Origin: a virus
Virus record (IMG/VR): IMGVR_UViG_3300045988_126226
Coordinates: 67,035-131,034 of that record
Strand: one strand, 5' to 3'
Length of the DNA: 64,000 nucleotides
Position numbers and translations under genes: made by a program. The notes below the pieces were generated by a model. That model worked only from the letters and a program-made list of their open reading frames with translations, was not told where the DNA came from and did no database searches. Positions 26,209 to 29,119 of the stretch are shown here, one piece after another; position 1 is the first letter of the stretch, and each line of letters begins with the position of its first letter.

Positions 26209-26508
26209 CTATTTAAATAAAAGATTAGTATTATTTATAATTTCTTCACCATAAGCTCCCACTAAATCCGCGATCAATTCTTCTTCTTCTGGTTTTAATG
26301 AAATATCATAGCTAAAAATAGCAGCATGAGTTAATTCATGCGCTAATACTTTTTTTAATTTTTTATTGCTAATATTTTCATTAATATAAATTGTTGAAGT
26401 AGGATCATCACAAGAACCTAAAGTATATATTCCAGAAGGTCGCATTAACATAGGATGATTGGAAGATACTAATAGTATCCTCCAATTCCTATCATTAATA
26501 TTAACCAT
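26209..26508 (-). CDS. ImmA/IrrE-like zinc metallopeptidase
   Basis: HELTHAAIF HEXXH motif in a 99-aa protein. Confidence 0.5.
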   Translation of the reverse strand: MVNINDRNWRILLVSSNHPMLMRPSGIYTLGSCDDPTSTIYINENISNKKLKKVLAHELTHAAIFSYDISLKPEEEELIADLVGAYGEEIINNTNLLFK

Positions 26509-27046
26509 TCATAGATCCAATTTTAGATGCTAAAGCCTAGATTTTCTTCTCCATATAAGAACGTTCATCATTAGAAGCATCTTCAATCATTTCTACTATA
26601 TCAGAACTTAATTCTTGAAGATACTTATCTAATTCTTTTATCTAAACGCTTTTATCTTTATGAAGTTCTTTGGCTTCTATATACATCTTTCTATGGACGC
26701 CGCTACGACCCTCTCTGCTATCATGGGCTTCATGAGATTTCCCACTCGTTGGCATCTCATATTCATGTTCATCATAATCATAATCTTCCCAATCATAATC
26801 ATATGTCATGGGTTTATAAATTCTTTTTTTATGAGGAGATTTATATTTTTCAGTATAATAATGTGTGGTTTCAGGTAATTCATTCATAGCTTCAGTAATA
26901 GTGCAATAATAAATAGCCTGTTCAAGGTCTTTTATCATATCTATTACTTCGCCCATTTCCTTTGTATCAACACATTCTAAATGAGCCATTTGGCTTTCTA
27001 CTTGAGTTAATAATTGCTTTTTAATTTCTTGGAATTTATCGCACAT
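26501..27046 (-). CDS. Acidic hypothetical protein (1 TAG); 8-nt overlap with the downstream peptidase
   Basis: ORF 26642..27046 continues through TAG 26642 to TAA 26501-03; RBS aaggagg. Confidence 0.45.
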
Positions 27047-27059
27047 TTAAAAAACCTCC

Positions 27060-27482
27060 TTATGCCACTCTCTCGATAATTAAGCTGGCATTTTCAACAT
27101 CAATAGCCTATGAACTCGTGTTTTCAATACTGATTTGAGTGCAACAACCGCCTAACACATCAAGGAATAAAGCACGTGAAACATTATTAAACTATCCAGT
27201 AGCCGTAGGAGTAGAAATCATTGTAGAAGTAGTAACTGGCTCTCCATTAATAGCTATAGCCAAAGAAATAGCACCCGCAGTTCCAGTAGTTGGAAGTCCT
27301 ATATTACCTCCAAATGAAATGCGGAAACGAGCTCTGCGTTGACCGTTCGTAAGACCGCGGAGGGTAACTAGACCGCTACCCTCGCGATACATTATGGAAC
27401 AGTTTCCAGCAACAGCTGTGTTAGTGAATACTACATTAGAACCAGTAGCAACTGATTGTAAAGCATTAGCCGTTATTTCCAT
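27060..27482 (-). CDS. BclA C-terminal-domain-like (C1q/TNF-like) small protein
   Basis: ORF 27192..27482 reads through TAGs to TAA 27060. The C-terminus ...NASLIIERVA resembles the end of Bacillus exosporium BclA (...ASIIIEKVA, from memory). Confidence 0.4.
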
Positions 27483-27503
27483 AATTTAACCTTCTTTCTT
27501 CAA

Positions 27504-28385
27504 TCAGGAATTGCAACCGCATCCTGAACCATATCCGCATCCATAGCTAGTATAACTAACACCGGTATAAGGATTAGCAACGATATAAGCAGGAGTTGCT
27601 TTTGGAGACAACTGATCAATAAGATAAGCATTTTGAAGATTTTGAGAAATCTAATTTTTAAGAGTGCTATTTTCACTGGTAAGAGTCTCAATTTTATCTT
27701 GAACAAGGAAGTCAAGAATAGAACGCATATTAGCATTATTGTTATCAATAATATCGCGGACACCATCAACGGTAGCCTGACGATTCTGGCAAGCAATACT
27801 AGCAAGATTATAATTAAGATCAGCAAAACTAGACTGAACTAACTGTTTATTCTCGCAGCAACATTGAGCATTAGTAGCTGCCATATTATTTAATTGCTGA
27901 GTTAAATTATTAGTATTTTGCATACTTGCTACAGTATCAGCATTAATAGCCTGAGTAATACTAAAGGTATTCTGCATATTGTTCATACCCATATTACAGA
28001 TATCACTCTGTAAAGTGCGAGTATTAGCATTATTAGTTTCAGCAAGATTAGCAAAACCACTTAAAAGATTAGTATTTACTCCACTAAAACCATTACAAAG
28101 GCTAGAAGCTAAACCATTAACGCCAGATTTAAGATCGCTCATGTTAAAACCATAACCGATTTCTTCTCGAGTTGTAGTACCTTGGAAACCAGAACCATTA
28201 GCACCATTATTACCCCAGCCATTACCGCCCCAGCCATTGAAGCAGAATAAGAACAGGATAATAATCCACCATGCTCCGTCTCCCCACATTCCGCCATCAT
28301 TATTACGATAGCCATTTCCAGAAGCCGCAGCAATATCAGATAATGAATAATTCGGCGTGCTCATTGGATAATTGTAATTAAACAT
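27504..28385 (-). CDS. N/Q-rich membrane protein with a Cys-Gly tail
   Basis: TM segment AWWIIILFLFCF, a Gly/Trp/Asn low-complexity stretch, an N/Q-rich coiled region, and C-terminus YGCGYGSGCGCNS. One TAG 27651 is read through to TGA 27504. Confidence 0.45.
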
Positions 28386-28411
28386 AACAAAACCTCTTTC
28401 TATAATTTTAT

Positions 28412-28660
28412 TTATTTAAACCCCATTTGGGACTTAAAACTATTAAATTCTTTATCGAAATTCAAACCTCTTGATTCAAACAAATTACGAGCAAATTTTT
28501 CAATGTCATCGGATTGACCGTTCCGTGCCATTTGTAATAAATTATTGCCCATTGGCGTTCCGCCCATTTGACTTTCAAGCATAGATAAAACTAATTGCTA
28601 TGGATTTTGACCGTTTTTAATCATAGCAATAATTTGCATTGGATTCATTGATTGTGTCAT
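28412..28660 (-). CDS. Small Q/M-rich hypothetical protein (1 TAG)
   Basis: 82 codons with RBS ggagag. MTQSMNPMQIIAMIKNGQNPQQL... Confidence 0.4.
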
Positions 28661-28672
28661 TTGAAACTCTCC

Positions 28673-29119
28673 TTAAAAATTAAACTGCGGTTTGCTCTCT
28701 GTTGGTTGCTATTGAGCTGGCTAACCCGATTCCTAAGACGGCGCAACCGCGTTATTGGATCCCATGATCTATGCAAATACTTCTTTAATAGAAGTTAAGG
28801 TAGTATTAAATTCTTCTCGTGTTATATAGTCATTATTAGGCTAAGAAGAATTTGGGATTTGTTTTAATTCATACATATTAATAGAAGCTGTTCCATCCAT
28901 ATTTATTTGTTTTGTATAAATTCTACGATTAGCATAGTCAGGAAAATAAAAAACTGAACCATCAAAATCTATATTCATAGCTCGAACCTCTTCTAAAGAA
29001 GCAACGGGTCTAATTCGCTATGCAGTATTGTTTTGAATTATAGGTGTAGCAGTTGTTCCATAAATAGGTCTATTATTACCTATTGGATACTACTGCTATG
29101 GATAACCATAAGTATTCAT
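28673..29119 (-). CDS. Gln-rich small protein with many TAG codons (YPQQQYP is encoded as tag-cag-tag)
   Basis: RBS ggagg plus ATG 29119. About 8 in-frame TAGs. GC-rich C-terminal segment ...APSQESGQPAQQQPTESKPQFNF. Confidence 0.4.

Follow-up and report, generated by a model that had tools for sequence, protein, structure and literature searches.

What do the small genes between the replication and the tail modules of the virus record IMGVR_UViG_3300045988_126226 encode, and are they related to the surface proteins of bacterial spores? We analyzed positions 67,035 to 131,034 of this IMG/VR record, a stretch of 64,000 nucleotides that is called the window in the following. A preliminary description had noted a cluster of small low-complexity proteins and an ImmA-like metallopeptidase at positions 26209-29119 of the window, and had suggested a kinship to spore coat and exosporium proteins. 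We conclude that the six genes form a late-gene cassette of gut viruses, which is self-contained and moves horizontally, and that this cassette is common to thousands of them. The spore hypothesis failed on the distribution of the cassette and on negative family tests. As a tentative model, the cassette would encode an anchored assembly of a helical stalk and a binding knob.

A late-gene cassette of gut viruses

The G+C content of the window is 30%. When TAG was read through, the sequence in open reading frames (ORFs) of at least 100 amino acids (aa) increased from 43 kb to 69 kb, and the longest frame reached 2649 aa. With code 15 (TAG = Gln), six minus-strand genes were found at 26188-29119, which form one transcription unit between two terminators and are designated Q148, s82, T293, J140, A181, and P106 (Table 1). 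Shine-Dalgarno-like sequences precede five of the six; P106 instead overlaps the preceding gene A181. We consider all six genes to be real. In columns with an in-frame TAG, Gln was the commonest residue of homologs that use the standard code, e.g., at position 125 of J140, position 135 of A181, and position 21 of s82. The cluster has 15.8 TAG per 1000 codons, as compared to 16.1 in the minus-strand structural genes (30569-63999) and 3.3 in the plus-strand replication genes (224-25100). Its TAG density matches that of the structural genes and places the cluster in the late class. Code 15 is identified by TAG codons in frame within conserved genes, by their alignment to Gln, and by their enrichment in late genes. 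A tRNA scan of the 64-kb window, from a genome of ~197 kb, revealed no tRNA gene and hence no suppressor tRNA.

All features that had been described for the cluster were present once TAG was translated as Gln: the HELTH motif, the NASLIIERVA end, the WWIIILFLF segment with Gly/Trp/Asn-rich flanks, the tail ...YGCGYGSGCGCNS, and the TAG-CAG-TAG run. The proposal of a single cluster was borne out by the six co-oriented genes between terminators. Its extent had to be corrected, as the peptidase gene ends at 26188 and not at 26209 under code 15 and the gene for the 181-aa protein had been missed. The TAG-CAG-TAG run had been assigned to two Q-rich proteins. It is present in Q148 only, and both proteins contain just 10-11% Gln.

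Human gut metagenomes contain near-identical copies of the whole cassette neighborhood. The contigs with these copies measure 65-380 kb, several of them ~197 kb, and also bear genes for PolIII-alpha, NrdD/NrdG, and dUTPase. The window is therefore derived from a jumbo TAG-recoded gut phage. Relatives of this phage were found in bins with Mollicutes, Bacilli, and Anaeroplasmatales, which is weak evidence for the host. Genes in identical order were present in Butyrivibrio phage Ceridwen, Dulem viruses 33 and 36, the C. perfringens phage CPD1 and its relatives, and a megaplasmid prophage of Vescimonas fastidiosa. We scanned one genome per GTDB species with the anchor motif of T293, which resulted in 62 loci, and clustered the ORF families over 68 loci (those of the GTDB scan and further loci). 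The frequency of each family is given in Table 1.

The order Q148, s82/s71, T293, jelly roll, A181/f5, P106/f18 recurs in two types of loci. In the jumbo-type layout, Q148, s82, T293, J140, A181, and P106 usually follow a holin gene and end against convergent replication genes. In the sipho-type layout, a gene for a 125-aa Cys/His protein and the genes Q148, s71, T293, J140, f5, and f18 are located after the lysis genes and before an integrase gene. The position of J140 is taken in some loci by f33, a distant C1q-like protein, or by the Cys-rich f52. For f33, Pfam BclA_C was matched with an E value of 9e-4 (19.5 bits, cut-off 38) and C1q with 0.03, and hhalign aligned it to J140 with an E value of 7e-4.

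Among 50,697 phage records, every match to the cassette came from gut, rumen, feces, or wastewater. Where a host is known or assigned, it is a strict anaerobe (C. perfringens, Butyrivibrio, Bacteroides, or Methanomassiliicoccales), and the cassette was also found in contigs binned with Selenomonadaceae. On plasmids, the matches were limited to one Vescimonas megaplasmid prophage and one Parabacteroides record of 2.4 kb. Homologs of T293 are encoded by many crAss-like phages, by the Bacteroides uniformis phage C3_41T2LP, and by two Methanomassiliicoccales viruses (vir215 and vir335). This distribution of homologs implies a probable transfer of the stalk protein across domains. In the crAss and Bacteroides versions, the genes downstream of T293 encode a beta-rich protein with a CC motif, a beta-plus-coil protein, an acidic protein with DY/RD repeats, and HExxH peptidases. 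The crAss version is flanked by HExxH proteins, and the version of the Bacteroides phage ends with a PolyVal metallopeptidase. The T293-family gene of vir215 (locus L075, 4878-5759) lacks the Cys tail and is not accompanied by other cassette genes.

The proteins of the cassette

T293, for which more than 7400 homologs were found, is the signature protein of the cassette. None of the homologs has a Pfam domain. T293 matches phrog_16490 (unknown function) with an E value of 1e-30. Its profile gave nothing significant against the PDB. The protein starts with YSLSDIAAASG and a Gly/Asn linker, followed by WWIIILFLFCF..GWGGNGWG, a helix of ~180 residues, CCC, PAY.VANPYTG, and a tail rich in Cys, Gly, and Tyr. 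The alignments conserve the N-terminal xSLADIAAxTG, an invariant WW..LFLF..GWG, CCC, RDIID...ILDFL, SQ..QN.YL, and PAY..NPYTG together with the Cys/Gly/Tyr tail. In the AlphaFold2 model, which is of low confidence with a predicted local distance difference test (pLDDT) score of 56, helices span residues 39-49, 82-135, and 140-259, and the tail is disordered. Over residues 82-259, the averaged hydrophobicity has a period of 3.6-3.67 that stays in phase, with a signal far stronger than in shuffled controls. Such a period indicates that one unbroken amphipathic stripe probably runs along the region, comparable to that of straight hendecad-type coiled coils.

The versions of T293 in crAss-like phages, Bacteroides phages, and archaeal viruses carry long, charged N-terminal extensions, which argues for a predicted location of the N-terminus in the cytoplasm. 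Judged by eye, a segment similar to s82 (..L.QNKGVDPNLMAML..) is apparently fused to the N-terminus in the same versions. The T293 tail sequence RYPNGYxYxAGxSPFC was found in all of the five loci with an f33-type knob and in no J140 locus. The tail type thus appears to track the knob type, and this is the sole evidence for a putative physical contact of tail and knob. A co-variation of the N-terminal motif with the type of cassette peptidase was rejected, since ADIAAxTG occurs with both types. We also dropped a likeness of YSLADIAAATGG to double-glycine leaders, as Gly-Gly is not conserved, and a likeness of the anchor to the tiny YjcZ sporulation proteins had no support from NCBIfam.

For J140, we found 4719 homologs in a large protein database, which form 625 clusters at 50% identity. 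The architecture of the family was judged on the best 150 of these clusters. Their representatives are stand-alone proteins of 71-196 aa, none of which has a collagen stalk and which are too short for one. J140 itself starts directly with the jelly roll and has no collagen-like (GXX)n stalk or exosporium leader. J140 had no match in Pfam at E<=1 and nothing meaningful in NCBIfam, and a profile of 53 family sequences had no match in the PDB. The AlphaFold2 model from the alignment of these 53 sequences is all-beta, with a pLDDT of 96 and a predicted template modeling score of 0.88. When this model was compared to the PDB by Foldseek, the C-terminal domain of F-BclA ranked top, followed by BxpB, BclA, and ExsFA, with TNF ligands, C1q heads, and some phage fiber knobs at lower ranks. 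The nearest models in a viral structure library were stand-alone gut-phage proteins of 130-145 aa, two of which were labeled 'BclA protein' by the depositors. For J140, a C1q/TNF jelly roll similar to those of BclA and ExsFA is thus a high-confidence prediction.

The C-terminus of BclA was given correctly in the preliminary description: the PDB chains 2r6q and 1wck end with ...LGTSASIIIEKVA. The last strand of J140, NASLIIERVA, is a terminal strand motif that is common to BclA, and a GCC motif is conserved in the J140 family. Comparing the sequences of J140 and BclA gave no significant similarity (E 1.3 by BLASTP; E 0.011 and a probability of 4% by hhalign), and J140 is not a member of BclA_C (PF18573) by sequence. 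The likeness to BclA is real at the level of the fold, with fold and last strand in common. To the C-terminal domains of BclA and F-BclA, which are located in the exosporium nap and at the F-ENA tip (1wck, 9h38), the identity of J140 is just ~15-18%. While BclA has a collagen-like stalk and an exosporium leader, J140 is a stand-alone, phage-encoded protein, and many of the hosts do not sporulate. Being short and stand-alone, the J140 family resembles ExsFA/BxpB more than BclA. No sequence likeness was found to ExsFA/BxpB/ExsF, the stand-alone TNF-like anchor of the exosporium (7r1m, 8d02, 9h3d).

Q148, the product of the first gene of the cassette, has a low-complexity N-terminus rich in Tyr, Gln, and Pro. 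Next come a conserved core of small size (..RPV.S.EE....D.DGS..F.D..N..IYTK.....G..) and a helix (Y[IV]TR.EF...), and the tail is rich in Gln with the aromatic end ..KPQFNF. The protein has no Pfam or PDB match and is similar to phrog_21718 (unknown function; E 9e-7). Members of the family adjoin T293 in 51 loci. We rejected an identity of Q148 with GerQ, since Pfam gave no match and none of 23 family members matched Spore_GerQ. The 82-aa protein s82 is helical and rich in Met, Gln, and Asn, and its match to Pfam DUF6240 is weak (18 bits) and below the cut-off. A181 consists of an N-terminal helical domain (..ELGEVIDMIKDLEEA.YYC..), an acidic low-complexity center rich in Tyr and Asp, and a C-terminal helical domain (REGRS..R..YME.KE.H.D....ELE.Y...L). 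The center is rich in Arg, Gly, and Tyr instead in the relatives of A181, and the N-terminal domain is homologous to that of f5 from sipho-type cassettes (hhalign, E 6e-5). A181 had no match in Pfam, NCBIfam, or PADLOC. J140, Q148, and A181 have no signal peptides.

P106, a protein of ~100 aa, has an invariant HExxH motif (H57, E58, H61) and a conserved EE (E76/E77) ~15-16 residues downstream. Pfam DUF2268 was matched with 24.5 bits (cut-off 23.6) over profile positions 24-80 of 195 only, and Peptidase_M78 with 21.1 bits, which is below the cut-off of 22. Selecase MJ1213 (E 0.005) and IrrE (E 0.01) were found by comparing the profile of the P106 family to the PDB; these were the only significant matches for the PDB sequence profiles of J140, T293, Q148, and P106. 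P106 is thus a predicted minimal HExxH metallopeptidase. It resembles the minigluzincin selecase (4qhf-4qhj) and the M78 peptidases ImmA/IrrE in its size of ~100-110 aa, the HExxH motif, and the downstream Glu, at E values of just 0.005-0.01. While ImmA normally cleaves an adjoining XRE-type repressor, P106 has no such neighbor: it is flanked by A181 and the terminator, and no helix-turn-helix (HTH) gene, ImmR-like or other, adjoins it in any of the jumbo-type loci. The earlier view of an ImmA-like enzyme was supported in that P106 is a predicted small HExxH metallopeptidase with matches to DUF2268, selecase, and IrrE. The gene was found in 16 loci, each time at the same position. The 125-aa protein of the sipho-type cassettes has conserved Cys and His residues, matches phrog_3754 (unknown function), and has no match in Pfam; it is a possible candidate for a peptidase with a Cys-His catalytic pair.

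Searches of Pfam, NCBIfam, PHROGs, and PADLOC with the six proteins and their positional analogs gave only PHROGs of unknown function and weak peptidase matches. All parts are of known fold kinds, i.e., a C1q/TNF jelly roll, a coiled coil, and a minigluzincin.

A stalk-plus-knob model and its alternatives

A split stalk-plus-knob is the most economical model for the cassette. We favor a late-made, anchored binding assembly of this type that would act at or after lysis, and assign it a probability of roughly 0.35; the steps from the membrane insertion of T293 onward are inferred. T293 would enter the cytoplasmic membrane via its N-terminal hydrophobic segment, with the N-terminus inside, and would oligomerize to a straight stalk of ~25 nm. 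A leaderless trimer of J140 may then be captured by the Cys/Gly/Tyr tail of T293, giving the split stalk and knob, comparable to BclA on BxpB. Because J140, Q148, and A181 lack signal peptides, this assembly would have to await the action of the holin or the onset of lysis, and docking may become possible once the neighboring holin fires or lysis starts. Q148, s82, and A181, which are prion-like, Met/Gln-rich, and Tyr/Asp- or Arg/Gly-rich, respectively, and have helical ends, could serve as chaperones or matrix. P106, or the 125-aa Cys-His protein in the small phages, may trim one of the components. The product would be a knob-tipped layer on the membrane or the debris of the lysing cell, which would bind a ligand common in the anaerobic gut habitat. 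Such a layer could serve adhesion, masking, or egress, and would not be a component of spores.

Several known systems offer analogies. ExsF holds terminal peptides of BclA and F-Anchor in the clefts between its subunits (PMC12357932). A capture of J140 by the T293 tail would be analogous to this, and also to Pgp3 and the Bdellovibrio fibers. The partner of ExsF is a collagen-like glycoprotein, while the partner proposed for J140 would be the alpha-helical, anchored T293. Coiled-coil fibers with TNF/C1q tips are known from Chlamydia (Pgp3), Bdellovibrio (Bd2439/Bd2734), PRD1 (P5), and the tail fibers of the cyanophages A-1(L)/A4. Unlike in those fibers, stalk and tip of the cassette are encoded by separate genes and accompanied by four further proteins, and the stalk combines a hydrophobic anchor with a tail rich in Cys.

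Since the virulent crAss-like phages carry the cassette and recoding in the jumbo phage is of the late type, the cassette acts in the lytic cycle and not only as a factor of lysogenic conversion. A core role in the virion or a role specific to one type of cell wall is unlikely, because the cassette crosses unrelated virion architectures and hosts with different envelopes.

A number of points weigh against the stalk-plus-knob assembly. The strongly hydrophobic core of T293 comprises just 9-13 residues, which is short for a membrane span. The T293 model is of low confidence (pLDDT 56), and the predicted oligomer is put forward as a proposal only. The co-variation of tail and knob could reflect shared descent alone. 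A contact of the leaderless J140, Q148, and A181 with an external tail requires lysis or export through the holin, which is assumed here. Outside Firmicutes phages, the cassette profiles detect only T293, and its neighbors are analogous by composition only. For every member, and for the ligand, the proposed role is based on computation and comparison.

We consider it very unlikely that the proteins join or imitate the spore coat or exosporium of the host. The spore reading had been suggested by compositions rich in Cys, Tyr, Gly, and Gln, and it gains from the fold of J140, which is closest to BclA, F-BclA, BxpB, and ExsFA with the terminal strand motif in common, and from hosts such as C. perfringens that sporulate. 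The profiles named in the preliminary description gave no support to a kinship: none of the six proteins matched GerQ, CotF, or BclA_C at E<=1, spore-coat models of Pfam and NCBIfam (GerQ, CotF, and others) were not matched by Q148, s82, A181, or T293, and an exosporium leader and a collagen stalk are absent. The suggested decoration or manipulation of host spores is largely refuted by the distribution: phages of the non-spore-formers Butyrivibrio and Bacteroides carry the cassette, as do crAss-like phages and contigs from Selenomonadaceae bins, and archaeal viruses have the stalk protein. The bins of the relatives of the window phage point the same way, at the weight stated above. The same jelly roll could instead be the distal knob of a head or tail fiber with T293 as its shaft, for adsorption or adherence to mucus. 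C1q/TNF knobs indeed tip the tail fibers of A-1(L) and A4, PRD1 P5, the Sf6 needle, and TM4 gp23; the cassette directly follows a gene for a receptor-binding protein in Dulem virus 36 and comes after tail-fiber-like genes in the window. The crAss homologs of T293 are annotated as 'spike protein/glycoprotein' or 'outer capsid protein/viral fiber', but these labels are automatic annotations, and the solved head fibers of PhiCrAss001, gp21 and gp29, are unrelated small proteins. A Trp-flanked hydrophobic anchor would be odd in a fiber of a tailed phage, and a jumbo phage of ~197 kb, phages of 30-60 kb (Ceridwen is predicted to be siphoviral), and crAss-like phages carry the cassette with no conserved attachment partner in the virion apparent. 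A virion fiber or decoration, which the preliminary description had named as an alternative beside odd lysis proteins, is unlikely in our view.

The location near lysis genes raises the possibility of a module for lysis control or egress, with T293 acting like the class III holin T of T4 or as a spanin-like rod across the envelope, the small soluble proteins as antiholin-type factors, and P106 as a trigger. Its main support is the constant adjacency of a holin, which is directly upstream in 11 jumbo-type loci. The cassette also follows holin and endolysin genes in Ceridwen, Dulem virus 33, and the Vescimonas prophage, and lies a few genes downstream of a holin and an L,D-carboxypeptidase gene in crAss cr116_1. 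In T4 holin T, a single membrane span connects a short N-terminus in the cytoplasm to a large, cysteine-bearing domain outside. The predicted layout of T293 is similar to that of T and of i-spanins, with a short N-terminus, a single hydrophobic segment, and a helical, Cys-bearing C-terminal domain encoded beside lysis genes. TAG density of the late-gene type, the invariant hydrophobic segment, which suggests specific helix-helix packing, and the failure to find an endolysin among the scanned window proteins would also fit. T293 is, however, far longer than T and not similar to it in sequence, a separate canonical holin is present, and Pfam and PHROGs revealed no sequence likeness to holin, antiholin, or spanin families. 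Ordinary holin-endolysin pairs co-exist with the cassette, which is equipped with separate terminators and in many cases with a dedicated small HTH regulator, and the timing of lysis would not be expected to require six genes with a C1q-type binding domain among them. The position after the lysis genes is also a classic site for cargo of temperate phages. We regard a lysis module as possible but somewhat doubtful. The location at the prophage end beside the integrase gene or attachment site in temperate phages and the Vescimonas prophage, together with the frequent HTH regulator and a predicted membrane protein, would suit superinfection exclusion, defense, or a surface conversion expressed by the prophage. 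This is quite improbable: PADLOC gave no match (AbiEi, 12.6 bits, was treated as noise), the crAss-like and jumbo carriers have no integrase in the regions examined, the TAG recoding is that of late genes, and six genes exceed the known exclusion systems. A further variant, also unlikely, would be a habitat-specific viral invention that crosses domains, with carriers among phages of Firmicutes and Bacteroidota and the stalk protein also in viruses of methanogenic archaea. An exosporium-like layer, made of the BclA/ExsF-type knob and the anchored helical stalk within Cys-, Tyr-, and Gln-rich low-complexity proteins, would be formed on membrane remnants of lysed cells or around released virions, and its reduced Cys and Tyr residues would cross-link on exposure to oxygen. 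If true, this layer would be an adhesive or protective matrix for viruses of strict anaerobes, for persistence in mucus or transmission outside the gut, and a viral analog of the spore surface without any spore.

Surroundings of the cassette and implications

The features of the cassette and of its surroundings are listed in Table 1. Promoter-like sites were not enriched in the cassette region, and the one upstream of Q148 was recognized by its consensus match alone. A search for riboswitches and known RNAs upstream of the cassette revealed none. Both terminators start with AAAAATAAGGGA and may represent a repeated terminator module of the phage.

Table 1. Positions of the cassette genes and of neighboring features in the window, with the occurrence of the gene families.
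Feature	Position	Strand	Loci with family (of 68)	Remarks
Q148	28673-29119	-	51	8 TAG codons; start ...YP-TAG-CAG-TAG-YP
s82	28412-28660	-		82 aa; 1 TAG codon
T293	27504-28385	-	58	WWIIILFLF hydrophobic segment, GW/N-rich flanks, CCC motif, tail ...YGCGYGSGCGCNS
J140	27060-27482	-	at least 38	140 aa; C-terminus NASLIIERVA
A181	26501-27046	-	17	181 aa; includes YDYDWEDYDYDEHEYE
P106	26188-26508	-	16	HELTH motif; start overlaps the end of A181
Bidirectional intrinsic terminator	26158-26204			20-bp stem, T run on both strands; closes the cassette and the convergent plus-strand replication genes
Bidirectional terminator	30082-30125			19-bp stem; upstream boundary, parts the holin gene from the cassette
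Promoter-like site	29171-29199	-		TTTACA-17-AATAAT, 10 of 12 consensus matches; ~50 bp upstream of Q148
Strong promoter-like sites	29260-29310			near the LytTR regulator gene
Orphan LytTR-type response regulator	29363-30079	+		Pfam Response_reg 34.1 bits, LytTR 20.4 bits; divergent, between holin gene and cassette
Holin gene	30124-30534	-		phrog_13712 holin, E 7e-38; usual upstream neighbor in this phage lineage
Replication and nucleotide-metabolism block	16098-25646	+		PolIII-alpha (PHP), guanylate kinase, NrdD and activase, dUTPase, RuvC-like resolvase
Giant ORF	34283-42031	-		code 15: 2582 aa, 28 TAG codons
Giant ORF	56053-63999	-		code 15: >2648 aa, 71 TAG codons; runs off the window end

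Many sipho-type cassettes are preceded, a few genes upstream, by a gene for an HTH protein of 64-86 aa (GerE/LuxR 27.9 bits, Sigma70_r4_2 23 bits; e.g., L031, 1247-1441, and L009, 2112-2372), which suggests a dedicated regulation. In the lineage of the window, its place is occupied by the orphan LytTR regulator. This gene was present in only 4 loci; it is lineage-specific and lies outside the core cassette. Its receiver domain, read by eye, has FLGI where the phospho-acceptor Asp is usual (FLDI), and the regulator may therefore work without phosphorylation. The replication block with an anaerobic ribonucleotide reductase is consistent with a strictly anaerobic host.

The cassettes of Ceridwen, CPD1, and Dulem virus 33 are interrupted by homing-endonuclease-like genes at differing positions (L001, 6500-7306; L009, 5570-6193; L002, 4413-4964). 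The insert of Dulem virus 33 is annotated as 'endonuclease', and those of Ceridwen and CPD1 were judged by sequence motifs only. Elements of this kind seem to insert into the cassette frequently. Rfam int-alpA motifs adjoin genes inserted within or beside the cassette, and a RAGATH-31 motif is located just upstream of one cassette (L002, 4985-5051, minus strand; L051, 8931-8995, plus strand; L042, 6549-6603, plus strand; all above the gathering threshold).

In the literature searched (BclA-like phage proteins, Ceridwen and C. perfringens phages, and 'spike' annotations of crAss phages), no description of the cassette and no functional data were found. Neither the combination of its parts, nor the split and anchored architecture, nor the spread throughout the gut and across domains is described there. 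None of the cassette families bears a name in Pfam, NCBIfam, or PADLOC, although two of them number thousands of members in gut metagenomes (4719 and >7400). The BclA/ExsF-type C1q fold, known from the surface of Bacillus spores, is widespread as a stand-alone phage protein. Exchange of the cassette among jumbo, 30-60-kb, and crAss-like phages, with the stalk protein also in archaeal viruses, and its confinement to animal-gut sources point to a strong habitat-linked function. The cultured carriers, Butyrivibrio phage Ceridwen, the CPD1-like phages of C. perfringens, and Bacteroides phage C3_41T2LP, allow direct testing. The function, once found, would annotate a sizeable slice of the viral dark matter of the gut, and the cassette may reveal a new mechanism of egress, adhesion, or persistence.

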